Program-made: the position numbers and the translations under genes
Origin: Candidatus Woesebacteria bacterium RIFCSPLOWO2_01_FULL_39_61
GTDB taxonomy: Bacteria > Patescibacteriota > Microgenomatia > UBA8517
Assembly (NCBI GenBank): GCA_001793155.1
Contig: MGHI01000004.1
Coordinates: forward strand, 1 to 39,330
Length of the DNA stretch: 39,330 bases
Direction of reading: 5' to 3'
Notes under the pieces: model-generated
What the model was told of the DNA's origin: nothing
Database searches by the model: none
Seen by the model: the letters and a program-made list of their open reading frames with translations, nothing else
In this document: positions 2,944-31,364 of the stretch, in pieces
Layout: every line of letters begins with the position of its first letter
Numbering within the stretch: the stretch's first letter is position 1

Positions 2944-4830
2944 ATGAGTGTCAAAGTTGACGATACCTTGGACAAATTAAGACATTCCACATCACACCTT
3001 CTGGCTGCGGCTATTCTTGATCTCTATCCCCGAGCCAAGCCTACATTAGGTCCGCCGATTGAGGATGGTTTCTATTATGATTTTGATAATCTGAAAATTT
3101 CGGACAGCGATCTACCTAAAATTGAAGAGAGAATGCATGACATAGTAAAAAGTTGGACAAAATTCGAAAAAAATCTGGTTACTTCAGAGGAGGCACGAAA
3201 ATTTTTCAAAGGAAACGAGTATAAAGTTGAGCTCATAAATGAGCACGCACAAGCTGGCGAGGAAATAACATTATATAAATCGGGGAATTTTATCGACCTC
3301 TGCCGCGGTGGACACATTACGAACCCCTCAAAGGAGTTAAAACATTTTAAACTTCTCTCTGTTGCCGGAGCGTACTGGCGTGGCAGCGAAAAAAACAAAA
3401 TGCTCACCCGTATCTACGGAACAGTCTTTTCTACCAAGGATGGGTTAGAAAAACATCTTAATAATCTCAAAGAAGCTGAAAAACGCGATCACAGGCTTTT
3501 AGGACGCGAGCTTGATTATTTCTCAATAAGTCCACTTACAGGCCCAGGACTTATCCTTTGGCATCCCAAATTAGCAACGATACGAAACATTGTCGAAGAG
3601 TACTGGAAAGGTCTACATTATAAACATGGTTATCAATTAGTCTATACGCCTCATATTGCCAGCATGGATATGTTCGTGATTTCTCGACACTATAACAAAT
3701 ATATCAACTCAATGTTTCCGGCAATGCTTCATCAATATATTGAAGGTGAAAGTAAACCCGACTATCAGGTAGATGAGCAGCTTAAGCCCATGAACTGCCC
3801 AAACCATATTCAGATTTACGAGTCGCATCCCAAAAGTTACAGAGAGCTTCCAATAAGAATGGGAGAACTTGGAACTGTGTATAGATATGAAAGAGCAGGC
3901 ACACTCCATGGAATGTCCAGAGTAAGAGGGTTTACTCAAGACGACTCCCATATATTTTGTCGACCAGATCAAGTTATTGATGAGGTTAGAGAAGTTATAA
4001 AACTAACTAAAAAAATGTACGAAGTTTTTGGTTTTACTGACTACCAAGCCTACATTTCAACAAGACCAGAAAAGTACTTGGGCTCATTAAAAATGTGGGG
4101 GATTGCCGAAGACTCTCTGAAAAAAGCCTTAGAGCTAGAAGGAGTTAAAAACTACAAAATTGATCAGGGGGCCGGAGTTTTCTATGGACCGAAAATTGAC
4201 TCGAAAGTTAAAGATTCTCTTGGACGGGAATGGCAGCTGGGTACTATACAATTCGACTTCAACATGCCGGATGCTGCCGAAACAACCGAAACGGAGATCG
4301 ATGAGTTTTGGGCAATGAAAACATTCCATGATAAATTTAAGACTCGAGAAGCACTTTCTAAATACCTTAAAAAACTAGGGCGGGGTTTTAATGTTCAATA
4401 CATTGATCAAAAAGGGCAGAAAAAACAAGCAGTAATGATACATAGGACTATTTTGGGATCAATGGAAAGATTTTTTGGAGTATTAATCGAGCATTACAAC
4501 GGAGCTTTCCCAACGTGGTTGACGCCTGTTCAGACTAAAGTTTTGCCGATTGCCGAAAGACATCTTGGATATGCAAATGAAGTCGTAAAGATATTAAAAA
4601 ATGAAGAAATTAGAGCAGAGCTAGATGATCGAAACGAAACTTTGCAAGCTAAAATTAGAGACGCGCAACTAGAAAAAGTTCCTTATATGCTCATCGTAGG
4701 AGATAAAGAGAAAAAAGCAGGAACTGTTGCGGTTAGATTAAGATCGGAAAAGGATCTAGGACAACTTTCCCTTGAAAAGTTTATTTCTGACGTTAAAGAG
4801 AAAATTGAATCAAAATCATTGGATTTGTAA
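2944..4830 (+). CDS. thrS: Threonine--tRNA ligase (no N-terminal TGS domain; about 37-aa insertion)
   Basis: RHSTSH and DLCRGGH editing motifs, KRDHR, KPMNCP, RVRGFTQDD, FYGPKID, HRTILGSMERF, C-terminal anticodon domain. Confidence 0.98.
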   Translation: MSVKVDDTLDKLRHSTSHLLAAAILDLYPRAKPTLGPPIEDGFYYDFDNLKISDSDLPKIEERMHDIVKSWTKFEKNLVTSEEARKFFKGNEYKVELINEHAQAGEEITLYKSGNFIDLCRGGHITNPSKELKHFKLLSVAGAYWRGSEKNKMLTRIYGTVFSTKDGLEKHLNNLKEAEKRDHRLLGRELDYFSISPLTGPGLILWHPKLATIRNIVEEYWKGLHYKHGYQLVYTPHIASMDMFVISRHYNKYINSMFPAMLHQYIEGESKPDYQVDEQLKPMNCPNHIQIYESHPKSYRELPIRMGELGTVYRYERAGTLHGMSRVRGFTQDDSHIFCRPDQVIDEVREVIKLTKKMYEVFGFTDYQAYISTRPEKYLGSLKMWGIAEDSLKKALELEGVKNYKIDQGAGVFYGPKIDSKVKDSLGREWQLGTIQFDFNMPDAAETTETEIDEFWAMKTFHDKFKTREALSKYLKKLGRGFNVQYIDQKGQKKQAVMIHRTILGSMERFFGVLIEHYNGAFPTWLTPVQTKVLPIAERHLGYANEVVKILKNEEIRAELDDRNETLQAKIRDAQLEKVPYMLIVGDKEKKAGTVAVRLRSEKDLGQLSLEKFISDVKEKIESKSLDL

Positions 4831-4879: not shown

Positions 4880-5452
4880 TTGAAAACCAACAATCTTAAC
4901 TTTCGAGTAAATCATCAAATTAACGCACCCGAATTAAGAGTTATTGGTGCCAATGGTAAACAGCTTGGAGTCTTAAAACTCCGGCAGGCTTTAGATAAAG
5001 CAAACGAGGCAGGCCTTGACCTTGTCGAAATTGCCCCAAACGCCAAACCTCCCGTAGTAAAAATCGTGGAGCTTGGCAAGTTCAAATACGAACAAGAAAA
5101 GAGGCTGCAAAAACAAAAGCGGGCAACGAAAGCCTCAGAAATAAAAGAGGTACGATTTTCGCCATTCATCGCCGAGCACGATTTCCAAAACCGAATAGCT
5201 AAGATCAGGGATTTTCTTGCCGACAAGCAAAAGGTCAGAGTCGTAGTTAAATTTACGGGTAGGCAAATGGACAGTAGGAGTTTTGGTTACAAACTCATTG
5301 AAAGAGTGGTAGAAGTTTTCAAAGACACAATTGTCATCGACATGGAACCGAAATTTTTGGGGAGACACTTAATAACGGTCATTTCGCCGACTAATAAGGT
5401 AAAAAAAGAAAAACCCGATTTAAATCTAAAAAATGCCGAAACAAAAAACTAA
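4880..5452 (+). CDS. infC: Translation initiation factor IF-3
   Basis: VNHQINAPELRVI, LDLVEIAPNAKPPVVK, KFTGRQ; thrS-infC-rpmI-rplT synteny; non-ATG (TTG) start. Confidence 0.96.
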   Translation: MKTNNLNFRVNHQINAPELRVIGANGKQLGVLKLRQALDKANEAGLDLVEIAPNAKPPVVKIVELGKFKYEQEKRLQKQKRATKASEIKEVRFSPFIAEHDFQNRIAKIRDFLADKQKVRVVVKFTGRQMDSRSFGYKLIERVVEVFKDTIVIDMEPKFLGRHLITVISPTNKVKKEKPDLNLKNAETKN

Positions 5453-5627
5453 AAAATCTATTACCAGAAGGTTCAAAGTAACCAAAAAAGGCAAGCTATT
5501 AAGACGCCAAGGGTTTAGACGTCATCTTAATGTCAAAAAAAGATCTAAGACCAAAAGACGCCTGAGTAAAGTAATTTCAACAAAGAAAGTCTACGCCAAA
5601 AAAATTAAAAAGGTGTTAGGAAAGTAG
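5433..5627 (+). CDS. rpmI: 50S ribosomal protein L35
   Basis: MPKQKTKKSITRRFKVTKKGK; synteny. Confidence 0.95.
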   Translation: MPKQKTKKSITRRFKVTKKGKLLRRQGFRRHLNVKKRSKTKRRLSKVISTKKVYAKKIKKVLGK

Positions 5628-5706
5628 ATGGTAGATAGTAGTTAGCAGATAGGATTTTTATTCTTTTTTCAATCCTACATACTATTTCCTATCTACTATC
5701 TACTAT
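5624..5706. repeat. Heptamer-periodic inverted repeat (GTAGATA / TATCTAC arms)
   Basis: GTAGATG GTAGATA GTAGTTA GCAGATA GG ... CCTACATA CTATTTC CTATCTA CTATCTA CTA between rpmI and rplT. Confidence 0.85.
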
Positions 5707-16403: not shown

Positions 16404-16638
16404 AGACGTAAAAACTCAAATTAAAAAACTCCTCTCGGAATATCTGGGAGTTGAGCCTGATGATATAGACGAAGAGGATTCCCTCGTAGCGGACCTGCAT
16501 ATGAAGCCGACAGATTTAACAGATTTTGTCGAAATACTTGATACTCGGGGACTGGATATTTCGAAACTAGAGTTAACTGAAATCGAAACCGTCGGAGAGC
16601 TCATTGAGGAAGTCGGTTTAAATGACTACCTCGATTAG
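16384..16638 (+). CDS. Acyl-carrier-protein-like protein lacking the canonical phosphopantetheine serine
   Basis: Small and acidic; [22 protein letters not shown]...[11 protein letters not shown] matches the ACP pattern; acp-rnc synteny. Start moved to ATG 16384. Confidence 0.75.
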
Positions 16639-16648
16639 AATAGTAAAT

Positions 16649-17323
16649 ATGTCCCCGAAAAGTATAGCAGTCTTATTTAAAAACAATAAAATATTTGATT
16701 TGGCTCTTACTCATAAATCATGGGTGAATGAGCACCCGGGCAAAAGCGAGTCGAACGAACGTTTAGAGTTCTTGGGCGATGCAGTGCTCGAGTTCGTCGT
16801 TTCAAAGGAACTTTATGAGCGTTTTCCGGACAAAGAAGAAGGATATTTGACAGCTTTAAGGGCAAATCTGGTAAATACCGTAAATCTCGCGGAAATTGCC
16901 AGGAAACTCAGGGTCGGAACACTTTTATACTTATCAAAAGGTGAAGAAGAGGGCGGAGGACGGGAAAATCCGTCGCTACTCGCTAACACAATGGAGGCTC
17001 TCATTGGAGGTTTATATATAGACGGAGGAATAACAGAAGCCGAAAATTTTATTAAAAAATATCTTTTCCCGTCTATAGACGAAAAGATAGCAAAACCTTT
17101 AAAAGACGCCAAAAGCAGACTCCAGGAATACGTTCAGGCCAAGGGTTTACCGGCTCCAAAATACGAAGTAGTCGAAGAGGAAGGCCCGGATCATAACAAA
17201 AAATTTACTATCGAAGCCAGGGTAAACAACGAAGTGTGGGGAAAAGGAATGGGAAAAAATAAAAGCGAGGCGGCACAGGATGCTGCAATAAAGGTTTTGG
17301 AGAAAATTTCAGATTCAGATTAA
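16649..17323 (+). CDS. rnc: Ribonuclease III
   Basis: NERLEFLGDAVL signature, EALIGGLYID, dsRBD (KSRLQEYVQ...GPDHNKKF). Start 16649 preferred over 16622 (TAGAAT 7 nt upstream, no overlap). Confidence 0.97.
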   Translation: MSPKSIAVLFKNNKIFDLALTHKSWVNEHPGKSESNERLEFLGDAVLEFVVSKELYERFPDKEEGYLTALRANLVNTVNLAEIARKLRVGTLLYLSKGEEEGGGRENPSLLANTMEALIGGLYIDGGITEAENFIKKYLFPSIDEKIAKPLKDAKSRLQEYVQAKGLPAPKYEVVEEEGPDHNKKFTIEARVNNEVWGKGMGKNKSEAAQDAAIKVLEKISDSD

Positions 17324-21404: not shown

Positions 21405-21947
21405 CTAGTAAATTCTTAACAAGAGTTTTGTTGTTGAGGTTACATCAGCTCCTTCTGCACCGGAGGAATTGGCGTCTCTACCTACCAAATTAATAATAAT
21501 TGAGGGGGGAACACCAGCGGTGGGGGGCGGGCAGTCAAATACATTCCCGGCAGTACAGTCTATATAAATTTCGGTTGAAGTTAGTCTTGCCGATCCCGAA
21601 GCAATATAACCATTAGCTCCACCTACGCAACTAAAATAGGGGTTTGTGGCCGTTCCCCATTCATCTTGGTAGGTTATCTGATTAGGGGTACATCCCCCGA
21701 CGGGTATTCCGCGGGCATTTCTTAAGTGTCTTTCCATAACATTCATTGCATACTCAACATTACCTTTTACCTGGCCTAGGTTTTCGCTTTTCCGGGATCC
21801 CCTGAGGCTCAGGGCTAAGGATTGAACAATAACATAAGCTAAAATTGTGAAAACTAGTAAAACAACCAATAGTTCAATAAGCGTATAGCCTGAGAATGCT
21901 TTACTTTTTTGATTTTTGATATTTGTTTTTTGAGCTTGATATATCAT
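21405..21947 (-). CDS. Minor pilin (PilW/PulJ-like)
   Basis: SG-YTLIELLVVL; MERHLRNA. Confidence 0.88.
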   Translation of the reverse strand: MIYQAQKTNIKNQKSKAFSGYTLIELLVVLLVFTILAYVIVQSLALSLRGSRKSENLGQVKGNVEYAMNVMERHLRNARGIPVGGCTPNQITYQDEWGTATNPYFSCVGGANGYIASGSARLTSTEIYIDCTAGNVFDCPPPTAGVPPSIIINLVGRDANSSGAEGADVTSTTKLLLRIY

Positions 21948-22405
21948 CTATTCCAGTCTGCAAGTTTAGAAATAGATCTAACCGTATGAACACCTTGTGA
22001 ATCAGTCCAGTTAACCGAAATCGTTACCTCCACAAGCCCTGCGTTAATCGCATCATCAGTCAAATTTATATCTCTTGTAAAAATCGTGCCCGTAATAGTT
22101 GCCGTTCCGCAGGAAGACGGTAAACCCCAAGCCGGTGGGGGGTAGGGAAGAGAGTTGATACACCAATTGCTTCCGGCACCTCCCGAAGAGTGCGATTTAA
22201 ATTCATCCCAATCTGCGTCCCTATACTGCCTGATCCACTCAGATCCTTCTTGAGCAAATTCCGTAGCGAGCGCATTATTTAATGAGAAACTGGTATTTCT
22301 AACCGAGGTCGCGGCAAGAGAAACTACTCCGATCAAAAGAATGGAAGCGATAGCCACAGAGAAAAGAACCTCAAAAAGTGACTGTCCGCTATATACCTTT
22401 ATCAT
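21944..22405 (-). CDS. Minor pilin (PilV/PulI-like)
   Basis: SG-QSLFEVLFSVAI; FAQEGSEWIR; VTISVNW. Confidence 0.82.
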   Translation of the reverse strand: MIKVYSGQSLFEVLFSVAIASILLIGVVSLAATSVRNTSFSLNNALATEFAQEGSEWIRQYRDADWDEFKSHSSGGAGSNWCINSLPYPPPAWGLPSSCGTATITGTIFTRDINLTDDAINAGLVEVTISVNWTDSQGVHTVRSISKLADWNR

Positions 22406-23556: not shown

Positions 23557-24117
23557 TTAGGGAACAGGACAGACAGCACCCGCAACCGGAATAGTCGCTA
23601 CTTCCCCGGATTCACCGTTTGAGCATACAAACCAGATCGGTGTAGTCGTATCCTGAGGTTGTTCTAATCTTGCATACAAGAAATAATTTCTCGCACAAGG
23701 ACCACCGAGAGCGCATGTTCCGTCACTCCTGAAAAAGTAACGACAGAGGCCACTGGTGCATATACTGTCTCCATCTCGTGGGTCGGCTGAACAATCGCCT
23801 GATCCCAAGCCCAAATCAGTAGTGCACAAGGTTGTATCTGCTTGCACGTCCGTGGTTCTTGACGGATAAAATCCGTTATTCCTGTTAGCGTATACTTCCA
23901 ATCCGCTTTGATATTGCCTCAGGTCGTTTTTTCTCAGTGTATCTCTTGCCCTTCTTTGACTTCCGGGAAACCTGGCAACAAATATCGTCGCAAGTCCGCC
24001 GATAACCGCCATTACGATTAGAAGTTCAATCAAAGTGAAACCATGGTGGGTAGTTAGAAATCGGTAGTCGGTTGTTCGCTTTGAAATTTGAAATTTGAAT
24101 TTTGAATTTTTTATCAT
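23557..24117 (-). CDS. Type IV pilin (GspG-like)
   Basis: HG-FTLIELLIVM; RDTLRKNDL..LEVY..YP; YARLE; 8 Cys. Confidence 0.92.
   Translation of the reverse strand: MIKNSKFKFQISKRTTDYRFLTTHHGFTLIELLIVMAVIGGLATIFVARFPGSQRRARDTLRKNDLRQYQSGLEVYANRNNGFYPSRTTDVQADTTLCTTDLGLGSGDCSADPRDGDSICTSGLCRYFFRSDGTCALGGPCARNYFLYARLEQPQDTTTPIWFVCSNGESGEVATIPVAGAVCPVP
24044..24110 (-). repeat. Two adjacent heptamer tandem arrays encoding a prepilin leader
   Basis: Minus strand: AAATTCA AAATTCA AATTTCA AATTTCA, then CGAACAA CCGACTA CCGATTT CTAACTA CCCACCA. Confidence 0.75.
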
Positions 24118-26363: not shown

Positions 26364-26894
26364 TTAGTTGATGAAGTTTTGACCTCCTGCGGCATAGGTT
26401 GGCTCTGTTCCTTCGCAAACTATACCCCCTCGACCCGAAACAGTATCAAAGACAACAAATGCGTTCTCAGCTGCTGCACACCTCGAGTCGTTAGATCCCG
26501 ACTCCAATCTTGCAAATACTATACCATTATTTGGAGGCGTACCACCATCGCTGTCATAACACCAATCTCCTTCAACTCCTTGCGTATTACAGGCACTAGT
26601 ACCGGTTATGTTGTAAGCTAAATTGCCTGGAACAACGGCTATTTCTCCGGCAGTAACCAAATCTGTAACCCAAGTGTTACTTTCAGTAACGTAGTCTCCC
26701 TCGTGTGATGCACCAAATGCCTGAAGTGCGTGCCCGAGTTGGGTAACTGACGAAGTTCGACCCGCGTCTCTGGTTCTGGCTAACTGTTCCTGAGGATTAA
26801 TCGCAACCAAAATAACTACGGCCAGAACTCCCAATATCGCAATAACGATCAAAAGTTCAATAAGTGTAAAACCTTTTTTCAAATAGGCAGTCAT
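26364..26894 (-). CDS. Type IV pilin, probable major pilin
   Basis: Short leader KG-FTLIELLIVI; strong SD-like GAGGGGGGGTGA (26906-26918); own promoter candidate and downstream hairpin. Confidence 0.93.
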   Translation of the reverse strand: MTAYLKKGFTLIELLIVIAILGVLAVVILVAINPQEQLARTRDAGRTSSVTQLGHALQAFGASHEGDYVTESNTWVTDLVTAGEIAVVPGNLAYNITGTSACNTQGVEGDWCYDSDGGTPPNNGIVFARLESGSNDSRCAAAENAFVVFDTVSGRGGIVCEGTEPTYAAGGQNFIN

Positions 26895-26927
26895 TTAATT
26901 AATAGTCACCCCCCCTCTTAGCAAATA

Positions 26928-27026
26928 AAAAATTCAAAATTAAAAATGCAAAATGATAAATCAAAATCTAATAATTTTTAACTTTAAATTGTAATTTTGA
27001 AATTTGATATTTTAATTTTAAATTTC
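26928..27026. repeat. AT-rich heptamer-periodic long inverted repeat in the pilin 5' UTR
   Basis: AAATTCA AAATTAA AAATGCA AAATGAT ... TAATTTT GAAATTT GATATTT TAATTTT AAATTTC. Confidence 0.8.
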
Positions 27027-27037
27027 TCAATATATCC

Positions 27038-27067
27038 AGTATTCACTAATTACCGCTCTGATGTCAA
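27038..27067 (-). promoter_or_regulatory. Promoter candidate for the major pilin
   Basis: Minus strand: perfect TTGACA, 18 nt, AATACT. Confidence 0.45.
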
Positions 27068-27080
27068 GTATATTGTTACT

Positions 27081-28286
27081 TTAGAGTTGTGTGGTCAAAT
27101 TATATATAGGCAGAATAATTGAAATTACCAAAAAAGCAACTCCAACACCCAAAAGAATCAACACCAAAGGTTCAACAGCAGCAGTTAGGGCTTTGACTTT
27201 TTGATCGCTTTCCACTTCAAAAACGTGACTTATTTTGGAGAGTACCTCGTCCATTTTCCCGGTTTCTTCTCCCACAGCAACCATTTGCGATAAAATAAAA
27301 GGGAATGCATCGGGGTGTCTCGAAAACGCGAAGGCTAATGGGAAACCTTTCTCGACCATTTTGGTAATTTCTTCAAGCGCTTCTGAAATCACAACATTTC
27401 CGACAACCTGAGAGGATATATTCAAGGCTTCAAGTATCGATACGCCCGAACCAATCATTAGGGATAGTGTTCGGGTTAGCTCGGTCAAAATAATCTGTTT
27501 TTGGAGATCTCCTACTATTGGGATTTTAAACAGAAATTCATCGGTTTTCTTCTTGCCTTCTTTAGAATTTCTGTATATACCGAAAGCATAAACACCGGCC
27601 CCCATGCCGATCAAAACCAACGGCCAGAACCGAAGCATAAAGTTTGATAGGCCTATTATTATTTTGGTCGATACCGGCAAATCCGCATCAAATTGTTCAT
27701 ATAGAGTAGTCAAACGGGGGATAACAAATATAAGCATAATTAAAGCAACCGCAATCATCCCAAGAATAATAATAACAGGATAAATTAATGCTCCTTTGAC
27801 TCTACCCTTAAACTCTTCCTGCTTCTCCAAGTCTTCGGCGAGCTTGACCAACACCTCGTCCAAAACTCCTCCTATTTCCCCTGATTTAATCAAAGCAATG
27901 TAGGTTTTTGAAAACGCATTTTTATGTTTTGACATAGAAGCAGACAGTGGTTCACCCTCTTCAACGTCAGCCAAAATTTGGGCAACTATAGTTTGCATTG
28001 ATCCTTTTGTTTGTGACCGGAGAATAAGTAGTGCTTCGGTTATCGGCAAACCGGCATTAATCATTGTCGCAAGTTGCCTGGTAAAACTTGATATATCACC
28101 ACCGGTAATTCTGTCTCTGAATTTCCTAACAAAATTGACGGAGAAATCACTTTTTGAAGAAATTGTTATTACTATTAAACCTTTCTGACGGATTAACTTA
28201 GCGGCTTGTTCCGGGTTTTGGGCTTCAACTTCGCCGATAACCAGATTGCCATTATTATCTTTGGCTTTATATCTATAGTGTTTCAT
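27081..28286 (-). CDS. pilC: Type IV pilus platform protein PilC (GspF family)
   Basis: FTRQLATMINAGLPI, SGEIGGVLD, ALIYP, VGEETGKMD, VEP. Confidence 0.96.
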   Translation of the reverse strand: MKHYRYKAKDNNGNLVIGEVEAQNPEQAAKLIRQKGLIVITISSKSDFSVNFVRKFRDRITGGDISSFTRQLATMINAGLPITEALLILRSQTKGSMQTIVAQILADVEEGEPLSASMSKHKNAFSKTYIALIKSGEIGGVLDEVLVKLAEDLEKQEEFKGRVKGALIYPVIIILGMIAVALIMLIFVIPRLTTLYEQFDADLPVSTKIIIGLSNFMLRFWPLVLIGMGAGVYAFGIYRNSKEGKKKTDEFLFKIPIVGDLQKQIILTELTRTLSLMIGSGVSILEALNISSQVVGNVVISEALEEITKMVEKGFPLAFAFSRHPDAFPFILSQMVAVGEETGKMDEVLSKISHVFEVESDQKVKALTAAVEPLVLILLGVGVAFLVISIILPIYNLTTQL

Positions 28287-28291
28287 AGGAC

Positions 28292-28370
28292 AGGTGAAAG
28301 GTGAATGGTAAAAGGTAAAAAACTGACATAAAGTCCTTGCCTTTTACCTCTTGCCTTTTACCTCTTGCCT
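28292..28370. repeat. Heptamer-periodic inverted repeat between pilT and pilC
   Basis: AGGTGAA AGGTGAA TGGTAAA AGGTAAA ... CTTGCCT TTTACCT CTTGCCT TTTACCT CTTGCCT. Confidence 0.85.
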
Positions 28371-29431
28371 TACTTTGAGGATCTTACCAACCTACTTAGC
28401 TCTTCAGGTCTTAGAGAAAATGTTTGCGCGGTTTTTAAGTCAATTTTCCCGATTTTCACCAGATTGGCAAGCGACATTTCGAGTGTGTTCATACCGACCT
28501 CCGTCGAGGTTTGAATAATATTGTCTATCTGATGAGTTTTTCCTTCCCGTACGGATGTTTTAATTGCCGAGGTTCCGAGCATAATTTCATAAGCTACAAC
28601 TCGTTTACCAGTTACGGAGGGGATGAGTCTCATCGAAAAAACCGCTTCGATTACATTGGAAAGTTGTAATCGTACCTGTTCTTGCTGTTCATCGGGAAAT
28701 ACATCAACAATTCTGTCGATTGTCTGAGAGGCGCTGTTTGTGTGTAAAGTTGCGAAGACAAGATGTCCGGTTTCCGCAACCGTTAAGGCTGATGCAATTG
28801 TTTCATAATCTCTCATTTCCCCAACGAGAACAACGTCAGGATCCTCTCTGAGTACGCTACGCAGTGCTATCTGCCAGGAGTGCGTATCGAATCCCATCTC
28901 CCTTTGAGATATTATTGAGCTTATCGGTTTAAATATAAATTCGATCGGATCTTCGATAGTTACGATATGTTCACTTCTGGCTTCGTTAATTTCATTCAGC
29001 ATCGAGGCAAGGGTTGTTGATTTTCCGTGACCGGTAGGGCCGGTAACCAATACAAACCCCTGTTTAAGACCTGTAAATGTGTGTATCAGTTTAGGAAGAC
29101 CGAGATCGTCGATTTTGGGTATTTTCAAAGGAATTCTTCTAAAGGCAAGGGCAAGAGTACCTTTTTGTGTATAAGCATTGACTCTGAAACGGGCATTTTG
29201 GTTAAAAGGGAGAGAAAAATCAACTTCTTTGTTAACAGTGAGACGTTCAATCTGCTCACTCGACATTATTTCTTTGGTAAACCTTTCGACAATCTCGGGA
29301 GTAAGAAGTTCTTCGTCCGGAATAGGGGACAGCTGACCCTCAATCCTCAAATAAGGAGCTATTCCCGATAAAATGTGCAGGTCTGATGCTTCTCTGTCTA
29401 CGGTAAGCTGTAATAACTCTTTGATATCCAC
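28370..29431 (-). CDS. pilT: Pilus retraction ATPase PilT
   Basis: ASDLH, RFRVNAY, GPTGHGKSTT, TIEDPIE, LREDPDVVLVGEMRD, AETGHLVFATLHT. Start moved to GTG 29431 because the 10 upstream codons are repeat-derived. Confidence 0.96.
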   Translation of the reverse strand: MDIKELLQLTVDREASDLHILSGIAPYLRIEGQLSPIPDEELLTPEIVERFTKEIMSSEQIERLTVNKEVDFSLPFNQNARFRVNAYTQKGTLALAFRRIPLKIPKIDDLGLPKLIHTFTGLKQGFVLVTGPTGHGKSTTLASMLNEINEARSEHIVTIEDPIEFIFKPISSIISQREMGFDTHSWQIALRSVLREDPDVVLVGEMRDYETIASALTVAETGHLVFATLHTNSASQTIDRIVDVFPDEQQEQVRLQLSNVIEAVFSMRLIPSVTGKRVVAYEIMLGTSAIKTSVREGKTHQIDNIIQTSTEVGMNTLEMSLANLVKIGKIDLKTAQTFSLRPEELSRLVRSSK

Positions 29432-29436
29432 CTTAA

Positions 29437-29500
29437 AAAATTGAAAATTGAAAATTGACAATTTGCATAATCAAATTGGTTATTTTAATTGAAAATTTCA
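29437..29500. repeat. Heptamer array (AATTGAA) between pilB and pilT
   Basis: AATTGAA AATTGAA AATTGAC AATTTGC, then CAAATTG and a degenerate partner arm. Confidence 0.7.
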
Positions 29501-29503
29501 TAA

Positions 29504-31246
29504 TTATTCCTGTGCAACTCTTAATACTTCCTCAATTGTCGTTATTCCTTCGACAACTTTTAAATATCCGTCTTGTTTCATTGTAATCATTCCTTCTTCG
29601 CGGGCCGCTTTATCTATTGCACCACTCGCATTCCGCTCTAATATAAGCCTACCTATTTTTTCGCTAACTGGCAATACTTCAAAAACTCCGACACGACCGT
29701 AATAGCCGCTGTTACCGCATTCCGGATCGCCTTTACCCTTATAAAATTTAATTGGTTGGGCCGGTCTCCATAATTGACCCAAGATGTTTGTTACCTCCTC
29801 TATAACTTTCGGTTCGGGAGAATATTCAATTTTACATGAATCGTGAATTTTACGTACAACCCTCTGGGCAACTATACAGTTTATTGTGGAAGCCAGTAAG
29901 AAAGGCTCCGCGTGCATATCCAAAAGTCTCGGAAGAGCCCCGGCTGCGTCATTTGTATGAAGTGTGGAAAAAACAAGATGCCCCGTTAATGAAGCCTGAA
30001 TAGCTAAATCCGCTGTTTCCTGATCACGGATTTCACCAACCAAAATAATATTAGGGTCCTGCCTCAAAAAGGATCTAAGCCCTGACGCAAAAGTAAGACC
30101 CGCGGCGGGATTAATTTGAACCTGATTCACCCCGGGTATTTTATATTCTATTGGGTCTTCCAACGTCAAAATATTAACTTTTGAGGTGTTAAGAGCAGAG
30201 ATCAATGAATAAAGAGTGGTAGTTTTTCCCGACCCCGTAGGCCCAGTGATTAAAATAATTCCGTGAGGCCGCAGAATATTCTCCTGCAGGATTTTAAGCG
30301 CGCGGCCACGAAGTCCAAGTTCACTTAAGCTCGGTATTCCGCCTGTTTTTTTCAAAAGCCTCATAACAATTTTCTCACCCCAAGCAGTAGGCAATGTTGA
30401 TATACGAAGGTCAACTTCGTCGCTTTCCGCTCTGAAATTAAAACGTCCGTCCTGGGGAACTCTTTTCTCATCAATCTTCATACCGGATAGAATTTTTATC
30501 CTTGATACGAGCGCTTCATGGAGTTCTTTAGGAATTGTTAATTTTTCCTGAAGTATTCCGTCGATACGGTAACGAACGCGGGTTGACGTTTCCTGGGGTT
30601 CAACGTGAACGTCAGACGCTCGGGCTTTCATAGCAAAACCTAAAATGTGTGATACTATCTCGGCTACTTTTTCTTCGCGGATAACGCCGGTTTTGGATAC
30701 ATCGAGCATCATTACCTTATCGCCGGTATCCATTTCGTGGAGTGCTTCAGACACTTCTTTCGCCAGGCTCGTTGTATACCCGGTGGAAATCAAAGTTTCT
30801 ATTTTTGAAGGCTCCGCTGCTTGGGGTTTTACAAGCATCCCCGTCTTTTGCTCGATAAACTCAATAGCAGTCAAATCCAAAGGGTTGGTCATCGCAATAA
30901 CTACTTGCTTGGCAACAGGATCAACCGATACTGGAAAGGCTTTAAACCGCATGGCTACTTCCTGAGGAAGTAAAGAAAGAGCTTCCGGGGAAACGGGAAC
31001 GGAAGCTAAGTCAATGAAGGGGACGTCATAAAGTTCCGCTTTAGCCTTGGTCAAAGAGGTTTCATCAACCAATTTTTGCGACATTAAGATGTCTTCCTGG
31101 GATTTTCCGGTCTGGATTTCAGCTAACTTAACTTGTTTGGCTTTTTGTGCATCCAGTGCTCCGTAGGATACCAATATGTCCGCGAGAGTTCTCGATGAGT
31201 CACCGTTAGCTTGCGTCTGGTCTGTTTTTGCATTCTGGGCAGGCAT
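29504..31246 (-). CDS. pilB: Pilus extension ATPase PilB (GspE family)
   Basis: N-terminal T2SSE_N region, ASDVHVEP, PQDGRF, GPTGSGKTTT, LRQDPNIILVGEIRD, LTGHLVFSTLHTN. Confidence 0.96.
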   Translation of the reverse strand: MPAQNAKTDQTQANGDSSRTLADILVSYGALDAQKAKQVKLAEIQTGKSQEDILMSQKLVDETSLTKAKAELYDVPFIDLASVPVSPEALSLLPQEVAMRFKAFPVSVDPVAKQVVIAMTNPLDLTAIEFIEQKTGMLVKPQAAEPSKIETLISTGYTTSLAKEVSEALHEMDTGDKVMMLDVSKTGVIREEKVAEIVSHILGFAMKARASDVHVEPQETSTRVRYRIDGILQEKLTIPKELHEALVSRIKILSGMKIDEKRVPQDGRFNFRAESDEVDLRISTLPTAWGEKIVMRLLKKTGGIPSLSELGLRGRALKILQENILRPHGIILITGPTGSGKTTTLYSLISALNTSKVNILTLEDPIEYKIPGVNQVQINPAAGLTFASGLRSFLRQDPNIILVGEIRDQETADLAIQASLTGHLVFSTLHTNDAAGALPRLLDMHAEPFLLASTINCIVAQRVVRKIHDSCKIEYSPEPKVIEEVTNILGQLWRPAQPIKFYKGKGDPECGNSGYYGRVGVFEVLPVSEKIGRLILERNASGAIDKAAREEGMITMKQDGYLKVVEGITTIEEVLRVAQE

Positions 31247-31257
31247 TGTATTAATTA

Positions 31258-31329
31258 AAAGTTTAAAGTGAAAAGCTAAAAATTACAAAGAAATTAGTTT
31301 TTAGCTTTTCGGTATTAGTTTTAAACTTT
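31258..31329. repeat. Heptamer-periodic inverted repeat in the pilB 5' UTR
   Basis: AAAGTTT AAAGTGA AAAGCTA AAAATTA; AAAGTTTAAA/TTTAAACTTT and GAAAAGCTAAAAA/TTTTTAGCTTTTC pair. Confidence 0.8.
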
Positions 31330-31334
31330 ATTCT

Positions 31335-31364
31335 ATTATGCCCCAGCAGGGGTGTTTCTTTCAA
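31335..31364 (-). promoter_or_regulatory. Promoter candidate for the pilus operon
   Basis: Minus strand: TTGAAA, 18 nt, CATAAT. Confidence 0.5.

Follow-up and report, generated by a model that had tools for sequence, protein, structure and literature searches.

Heptamer Arrays at a Pilus Gene Cluster

A pilus (pil) gene cluster displaying tandem 7-nt repeats at its successive gene junctions lies in a 39,330-nt stretch of DNA (the window) from Candidatus Woesebacteria bacterium RIFCSPLOWO2_01_FULL_39_61 (MGHI01000004.1, positions 1 to 39,330 of the forward strand), which is contig C4 of a source genome comprising 1.08 Mb in 46 contigs and 96% complete. An original prediction, made from the letters alone, held that the repeats form hairpins that are either empty sites or scars of a mobile cassette system or ribonuclease III (RNase III) substrates tuning pilus subunit stoichiometry. 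The analysis described here favors, with a probability of roughly 0.62, the reading that the arrays are gene-less short copies of a selfish element resembling the intervening sequences (IVSs) of rRNA, whose long form holds a four-helix-bundle gene (S23p/IVP, TIGR02436). The minus-strand gene order is pilB, pilT, pilC, and pilin, followed by further pilins, prepilin peptidase, and pilM, and the nearest titled relatives of the window PilT are from Candidatus Woesebacteria (84-85% identity). The five named arrays, the genes that they separate, and two promoter candidates are as follows.

31258..31329, no strand: gene-less heptamer hairpin in the pilB leader, with arms at 31258-31289 and 31298-31329 (z -3.99)
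29437..29500, no strand: AATTGAA-type array filling the pilB-pilT spacer, with a weak partner (z -0.30, not a significant hairpin)
28292..28371, no strand: gene-less GGTAAAA/GGCAAGA hairpin between pilT and pilC, from the pilT stop to 5 nt before the pilC start (z -4.65)
26922..27027, no strand: gene-less ~105-nt AAATTCA/TTTTGAA hairpin between pilC and pilin, located between the pilin promoter and its ribosome-binding site (z -2.99)
5623..5706, no strand: gene-less GTAGATA/TACTATC hairpin before rplT (z -5.92)
29504..31246, minus strand: pilB, with MshEN and T2SSE ATPase domains
28370..29431, minus strand: pilT, with the GTG start at 29431 inferred from relatives (the open reading frame (ORF) list reaches 29461)
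27081..28286, minus strand: pilC, with two T2SSF domains
26364..26894, minus strand: first pilin gene, with an N-methylation motif
31335..31364, minus strand: sigma-70-like promoter candidate for pilB, TTGAAA-18-CATAAT, a consensus match only
27038..27067, minus strand: sigma-70-like promoter candidate for the pilin gene, TTGACA-18-AATACT, with a similar site in many relatives

Tandem Repeats Finder (TRF) reproduced the coordinates and units given for the five arrays in the original prediction, retrieving period-7 arrays at 31255-31290 (weak, 68% matches), 29437-29463, 28292-28320 and 28336-28371 (period 14), 26929-26967 and 26996-27025, and 5623-5652 and 5680-5706, with ~3.7-5.7 units per arm. 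The proposed inverted arrangement stood at four of the five sites, where the arms are complementary at 72-82%, their ends form the long stem typical of an IVS, and folding of the coding-strand RNA beat all 200 shuffles (z -3.0 to -5.9); it failed at pilB-pilT, where the partner arm is weak and 65 of 200 shuffles folded as well (z -0.3). As claimed, two arrays follow sigma-70-like sites (31364-31335 and 27067-27038), and the 15 such sites in the scan are within chance (11.3 +/- 4.0). None of the four pil arrays is among the five terminator-like sites listed, as would be expected of an intrinsic terminator with a GC-rich stem and U run, and an Rfam scan of the window gave no match. Separately, a plus-strand terminator-like stem (31338-31355) lies inside the pilB promoter candidate, between both hexamers. 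The small ORF upstream of the GTAGATA hairpin (5433-5627) is taken as rpmI by position.

Genome-Wide Excess of Seven-Base Arrays

The expectation that period 7 is enriched was borne out across the source genome. At 17/21 matches, 66 arrays of period 7 were retrieved, compared with at most 8 for any period that is not a multiple of 7 and 0-2 in three shuffles. Period-7 arrays occupy 63 of 658 intergenic spacers, versus 16 for period 8 and 1-5 in five dinucleotide shuffles. At 16/21 matches, the count rises to 105, with 64 intergenic arrays and 41 inside called genes (spacers constitute ~13% of the genome; the gene calls are from our own script). Co-directional neighbors flank 51 of the 59 intergenic arrays with two neighbors (p 2e-4), and the best complement falls within 120 nt for 40/105 arrays versus 14% expected. 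The period-7 excess, the ~4 units per array, the co-directional spacers, and the inverted pairs together are the features of heptamer simple-sequence repeats. Many unrelated unit sequences coexist in the genome, and the suggestion that architecture and not sequence is conserved proved only half right, because every unit type recurs elsewhere as a sequence family.

Two candidate regularities were discarded. A rule that arms following stops are purine-rich and arms preceding starts are pyrimidine-rich held weakly (9/20 and 15/23). Stop codons within the unit, considered as the reason for period 7, were present in 48/56 cases versus 40 +/- 3 in shuffled units, but also in 39 on the opposite strand. 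Arrays also lie in frame within protein-coding genes; two genes (C39:59259-60584 and C42:11776-12432; C-numbers denote contigs of the source genome) each contain two period-7 arrays.

Association with Four-Helix-Bundle Genes

The original prediction stated that such arrays often flank TIGR02436-type genes inserted in operons and that none is present here. Both statements were upheld: no TIGR02436 four-helix-bundle gene was found in the window, and seven of the nine full-length TIGR02436 genes in the genome carry period-7 arms on both sides. Another carries an arm on one side, and the remaining full-length gene lies inside 16S rRNA within a long stem with weaker repeats; a tenth, partial match has no arms. 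The arrangement that defines an S23p/IVP cassette, an ORF between two arms, is absent from the window; elsewhere in the genome it was found at nine sites, and four relatives have it after pilC. TIGR02436 is present in 207/301 genomes of the class and 87/139 of the order. Among 42 TIGR02436 genes of the class, drawn from 40 regions picked from the best-scoring matches listed, period-7 arms accompany 36, in pairs for 28 of these, and most of the others display period 8.

Some arms in the window resemble those of cassettes. The pilT-pilC arm shares a 24-nt exact match with an arm of the cassette at C40:63686, and its 20-mer occurs nowhere else in the genome. Scored over 21 positions, the best cassette-arm matches are 21/21 for pilT-pilC, 19/21 for both pilB-pilT (C40:56475) and rpmI-rplT (C39:39216), 17 for pilC-pilin, and 16 for the pilB leader; the last two have no clear cassette partner. 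At different sites, protein identity predicts the similarity of arm units, which rises from 0.45 to 0.63 (Mantel 0.27, 0/500, scored on the 56 of 75 cassettes with a scorable arm). A gene and its arm type travel between sites as a block; such co-inheritance does not amount to binding. In addition, array density in 11 kb of pil DNA from 80 genomes tracks the TIGR02436 count (rho 0.50; control periods 0.16), from 1.2 arrays per 10 kb with zero TIGR02436 genes to 4.3 with four or more.

Other cargo was sought as well. GxxExxY (TIGR04256) gave no match as an alternative cargo, and only 6/519 small called genes have arrays on both sides versus 3.5 expected, yielding no new family. The same design also occurs with other periods, namely, arms of ~10-base and ~6-base units flanking four-helix-bundle genes, and empty hairpins made of 8-base units (L092:7848-8400 and L120:11237-11770; L045, L118, and L124 at pilT-pilC; L-numbers denote fetched loci, from relatives unless placed on a contig of the source genome).

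Cassettes and Empty Hairpins in Relatives

Presence of an array at a given junction is patchy among relatives. Arrays occupy the four pil junctions in 21/75, 8/80, 5/80, and 14/80 relatives, and the median spacers at pilB-pilT and pilT-pilC are 13 and 16 nt. The empty arrays have differing units and are scattered on a PilT tree (119 rows, with weak deep branches), with sister taxa differing.

The original prediction could be read as stating that a cassette was once inserted at every site where an empty hairpin now lies, the hairpin being the scar left when the gene was deleted between paired arms, and sister genomes were to be inspected for cargo. Such cargo was found at one junction and at no other. 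The pilC-pilin spacer of four relatives contains a TIGR02436 cassette, which is in the sense orientation and of one unit family in L099 (the same sequence as L401) and L407, has longer units in L092, and is antisense in L086, where the gene is truncated (~65 codons) and both arms are intact, as might be expected of a cassette losing its gene. In a further clade, a cassette follows prepilin peptidase. No cargo was seen in 127 de-duplicated pilB-pilT loci or 130 pilT-pilC loci, or in a smaller set of 30 loci, and in 80 genomes of the family all four junctions were free of it (the 127- and 130-locus sets overlap with the 80 genomes). The long pilB-pilT gaps of L108 and L109 and the long pilT-pilC gap of L319 gave no four-helix-bundle match, and none of 29 relatives has cargo before rplT (200 nt upstream read by eye), where one displays a heptamer hairpin of another unit.

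Even at pilC-pilin the correspondence is imperfect. The cassette precedes the pilin promoter in L099/L401, L407, and L086, whereas the window hairpin follows it; in L092 no pilin promoter hexamer was located. The L401 and L407 cassettes share 75% amino acid identity, with fourfold-site divergence of 0.64 versus 0.68 in pilC; because the two share the gene at saturated divergence, a cassette gene can be old and conserved. L402, which is closer to L401 than L407 is, has a 15-nt pilC-pilin spacer with no hairpin left. No junction was seen with filled and empty forms sharing one unit; where both forms occurred at one junction, their units differed. No gene fragments were found between arms in the source genome. 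Of 74 cassettes from other genomes, 17 could be mapped here by neighboring genes, with one clear empty hairpin, numbers too small to mark the sites filled in other genomes as hotspots here. In favor of scars, an empty hairpin at C39:53147-53285 precedes a gene whose homologue follows a cassette in L386 and L389. Taken with the related full-length copies of empty hairpins at other sites, described below, these observations leave the deletion of a resident gene an improbable origin for each hairpin, and the scar part of the prediction is unproven.

Two further arrangements were observed at pil junctions of relatives. In L367, L298, L350, and L324, a single spacer contains nested or chimeric arrays of two or three unit families, as though new insertions were drawn to hairpins already present. 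In L334, L313, and L315, heptamer arms lie on both sides of a promoter-like site between pilB and an apparent divergent gene; this places the promoter in the hairpin loop, so that each transcript would carry a single arm.

Gene-Less Copies at Unrelated Sites and in rRNA

Several unit families coexist in the genome, and their gene-less members recur as related whole units, ~70-140 nt in length, at sites that are themselves unrelated. For the pilC-pilin hairpin, five further full-length copies align at 73-78% identity over 95-100 nt, nearly gapless, and most of the five fill a spacer from stop to start; the family thus has six copies of ~100-105 nt, and ~10 further members were found in the loci of relatives. 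Such dispersed, related copies of fixed length with inverted ends are as expected of miniature inverted-repeat transposable elements (MITEs). The pilB-leader hairpin has a related copy at C22:6210-6294 (76% over 85 nt), the score of which is reached by 3/200 unit shuffles, and overall, unit order is retained beyond unit-shuffled controls in 6/9 comparisons (at most 4/200 shuffles).

The same design recurs in the rRNA genes of contig C21, where it replaces loops in the manner of an IVS. At C21:4488-6374 (L431:588-2475), the 23S rRNA gene contains five gene-less ~120-nt hairpins in loops (z -5.9 to -8.5), inserted near Rfam model positions 166, 283, 583, 1218, and 1437, and a sixth gene-less heptamer hairpin lies just upstream of the gene (C21:6540-6690). 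Positions 583 and 1218 presumably correspond to helices 25 and 45 in Escherichia coli numbering. Helices 25 and 45 are described as usual IVS sites (PMC4990558). Excision of every hairpin would break the 23S rRNA into six or more pieces. At C21:22003-23450 (L432), the 16S rRNA gene displays a TIGR02436 cassette near its 5′ end, the protein of which is 58% identical to that of the cassette after pilC in L099, together with two gene-less heptamer hairpins. Three of the five 23S inserts form one family with one 16S insert (72-79%). With the other 16S insert, the 23S insert at 1218 shares 83% identity over 140 nt (score 148 vs 30 +/- 7). Outside the rRNA operon, weaker relatives (70-74%) exist for two of the rRNA inserts. 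Gene-bearing and gene-less forms are found side by side in rRNA and in mRNA spacers, with arms that match and with copies of whole units at unrelated sites. Toward its 3′ end, the 23S rRNA gene also contains two long ORF-bearing inserts (C21 ~1900-2560 and ~3300-3960), which we take to resemble group I introns with homing endonucleases.

These families bear on a second alternative, in which there is no mobile element and the hairpins originate locally, slippage expanding 7-mers and fold-back template switching making or repairing the complementary arm. Template switching occurs at quasi-palindromes, and unit number does change by slippage: the near-identical genomes of L113 and L114 differ by one repeat unit. 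Many arms are solo, folding shows no strand preference (16/30 in relatives and 8/18 in this genome, as detailed below) and no covariation, arrays occur in genomes without a TIGR02436 match, and a heptamer repeat excess has been reported in bacteria (PMC4692102). However, local origin predicts neither fixed-length families with conserved unit order, nor an 83% copy common to 16S and 23S sites, nor the tie to TIGR02436. It also fails to predict the identical unit family maintained at pilT-pilC across saturated synonymous divergence (fourfold sites between relatives are mostly saturated, at 0.42-0.70). We regard a purely local origin as improbable and the dispersal of IVS-like copies as the better account.

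In-Frame Arrays in Prepilin Leaders

The list of arrays in the original prediction was incomplete, missing two solo arms within coding sequence.

24080..24110, minus strand: solo AAATTCA-type arm, in frame in the leader peptide of the prepilin at 23557-24117
21906..21933, minus strand: solo TCAAAAA-type arm, in frame in the leader peptide of the prepilin at 21405-21947

Among relatives, period-7 arrays of many different units are present in 29/218 prepilin leaders, compared with 0/218 mature controls and 1.45 in shuffles (the 218 are those of at least 30 nt among 398 leaders found in L291-L370). In-frame arrays may explain the unusually long prepilin leaders of these bacteria. Gene-less sites comprise co-directional spacers and 16S/23S rRNA loops, with half-elements in leader peptides and within genes, and placement is driven by tolerance.

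Relation to Pilus Expression

A third possibility, raised in part by the original prediction, is that selection maintains the hairpins as RNase III sites or translation gates fixing the PilB/PilT/PilC/pilin ratio. Three of the four pil sites fold well, two follow promoter-like sites, and the pilT-pilC stem takes up the entire spacer as far as the start codon. A precedent is known from Haemophilus influenzae, in which the HMW adhesin is under the control of a heptamer-repeat hairpin in the 5′ untranslated region (UTR) that RNase III cuts (PMC12721329). The pil region is also among the densest of the genome, with 6 arrays in 12 kb versus a mean of 1.25. Even so, 3/118 12-kb windows are denser still, and 62/830 co-directional junctions genome-wide carry arrays.

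The proposed link to RNase III rested on proximity of its gene.

16622..17323, plus strand: rnc (RNase III), the linkage of which to pil reflects family-wide synteny and is not part of the element

Rather than adjoining the locus, rnc lies 9.8 kb from pilC on the other strand, and it lies 10-14 kb from pilC in all five of five genomes picked for an array-free pil locus; the linkage is generic. Folding displayed no strand preference, the coding strand being better in 16/30 junction hairpins of relatives and 8/18 in this genome. For the ~100-nt family, RNAalifold found no pairs, and a hand-drawn register gave no covariation above shuffles. The strand and covariation tests remove the signs of selection for RNase III cutting. 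Because perfect stems pair on both strands, RNase III may nonetheless cut the hairpins incidentally.

The hmw-type expectation of a hairpin conserved at the same position across relatives was not borne out: most relatives lack the arrays, and sister taxa differ. Spacers are short, and the pilB-pilT array does not fold. Tuning of the pilus by these hairpins is unlikely, and as a general account of the arrays, selected regulation is the least probable of the explanations considered. The pil junctions are likely ordinary landing places of the dispersed element, with no new pilus control system, and the long prepilin leaders and intergenic hairpins of these bacteria need not be regulatory.

Proposed Origin and Spread

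The original observation is largely right, and its link to cassettes is supported. For the IVS-like element favored here, we infer a mode of spread in which gene-less hairpins would be copied as whole units and would persist where promoter, stop, and start signals are spared. The pil operon would be rich in arrays because its junctions are numerous and its leaders cleavable. RNase III would cut long stems, as it does in the Coxiella IVS, freeing the rRNA and perhaps clipping mRNA as a side effect.

How copying is promoted is addressed more tentatively. The solved structure of XCC0516, a relative of the four-helix-bundle protein, comprises five chains (2GSC, E 6e-8), and XCC0516 is described as a homopentamer (PMC4990558). 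Avd is described as a similar pentamer that binds an RNA stem-loop (10.1101/2023.10.23.563531). We favor, though as somewhat less likely than not, a scheme in which a pentameric, Avd-like four-helix-bundle protein would bind the repeat arms and, through host recombination between arms, help them to be copied or retained. The broader proposal is that S23p/IVP genes and heptamer hairpins constitute one class of mobile element without its own transposase or reverse transcriptase, in which an Avd-like pentamer would recognize its cognate 7-base arms and drive the copying of hairpins, with or without a gene, into rRNA loops, gene junctions, and leader peptides; it is speculative and somewhat doubtful. 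If true, it would account together for ORF-less rRNA IVSs, the heptamer excess in bacteria, and an orphan protein family. As a separate observation, a ComEC match (PF03772, C19:14029-14724) has two internal stop codons and may be split or frameshifted.

Several points weigh against the proposed IVS-like copies. Arrays are present in the pil locus of 20/31 genomes without a TIGR02436 match, and the density correlation and the Mantel comparison were run across kin, so their support is overstated. Within this genome, the ~100-nt family is represented by gene-less members alone, and its profile was built from the six copies it found. Three of the nine unit-order comparisons are weaker (7, 37, and 176 of 200 shuffles), and AT-rich periodic DNA aligns easily. 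The rRNA operon derives from a metagenome assembly with an N-run in 16S near 21950. Cassette movement may be slow, because one cassette kept its site across saturated synonymous divergence. A reverse transcriptase search of the 96% complete genome gave no match, and inspection by eye of six copies, which are old and diverged and have uncertain ends, revealed no target-site duplication. Y1 transposase has four matches in the genome, of which the one inspected is without heptamer arms.

Comparison with Known Systems

IVSs, the bacterial excess of 7-base repeats, and the S23p family have each so far been described without a spread mechanism or function. The component parts are already known separately, and no paper joining heptamer hairpins and S23p genes outside rRNA was found in the literature covered (main texts, with few subscription papers). 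The present case adds rRNA copies, a fixed-length family, and negative tests of regulation, and the genome offers concrete substrates for protein binding, RNase III cutting, and mobility.

The closest relatives are rRNA IVSs (PF05635, TIGR02436). In the Coxiella IVS of helix 45, heptamer repeats (GACAGAT) precede S23p and are the place where RNase III cuts (PMC4990558), and rRNA inserts of the candidate phyla radiation include IVSs with and without an ORF (PMC11270868). Shared features are a long stem from complementary ends, heptamers beside the ORF, sporadic distribution, and the occurrence of both ORF-bearing and ORF-less inserts, both of which this genome's rRNA contains. In contrast, the five named elements are ORF-less, reside in mRNA leaders and spacers, replace no rRNA loop, and belong to several coexisting unit families; the available parts of PMC4990558 and PMC11270868 describe no such elements outside rRNA. 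The window elements fail strict IVS membership because they are located outside rRNA, but they look, and likely behave, like ORF-less IVSs.

Short, gene-less, palindromic, dispersed elements are also represented by MITEs, repetitive extragenic palindromes (REPs) and bacterial interspersed mosaic elements (BIMEs), and Rickettsia palindromic elements, some of which insert in frame in genes. The likeness to the hairpins lies in these traits; the difference is that the arms here are tandem heptamers and that no target-site duplication was evident at six copies and no matching transposase at the one Y1 gene inspected of four. Nor does the pattern fit REP/BIME elements mobilized by REP-associated tyrosine transposases (RAYTs), given the many unrelated units and the one inspected Y1 gene (of four) without arrays.

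Heptamer repeats of other bacteria share part of the design. The GGGAATC (Xanthomonas) and GGGGA(C/T)T (Nostoc) repeats have period 7, ~4 units, and inverted pairs (70 in Xcc), and they lie in co-directional spacers near stop and start codons with functionally unbiased neighbors. Unlike the arrays here, which comprise many AT-rich, patchy units tied to four-helix-bundle genes, each of those genomes has one G-rich unit, which is interpreted as a G-quadruplex and is for the most part conserved across two species (PMC4692102). In Nostoc intron hairpins, degenerate heptamer arms pair at a tolerant site, and two repeat classes of variable copy number occupy one position, but they represent a single locus used as a marker, with a cargo gene or genome-wide family undiscussed in the available text (PMC3488679). 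TAACTGA repeats of Beggiatoaceae, Cyanobacteria, and Bacteroidetes are likewise heptamers, located immediately ahead of start codons, within ORFs, and in operons for ribosomal proteins, with horizontal spread suspected but no mechanism given; they differ in being described as direct repeats of one unit and as regulator binding sites (PMC4679880). The terms "helix bundle", "S23", and "intervening" are absent from the main text of that paper. In the hmw 5′ UTR of H. influenzae, transcribed heptamers form one arm of a long hairpin, setting the RNase III precedent. There, the hairpin regulates a single locus, is conserved and phase-variable, and pairs its repeats with a non-repeat arm (PMC12721329); here, both arms are repeats and sites are not conserved.

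A different, non-heptamer palindromic repeat of ~60 nt was also observed after the pilC stop in several genomes belonging to one family (L403-L412, L084, and L097).

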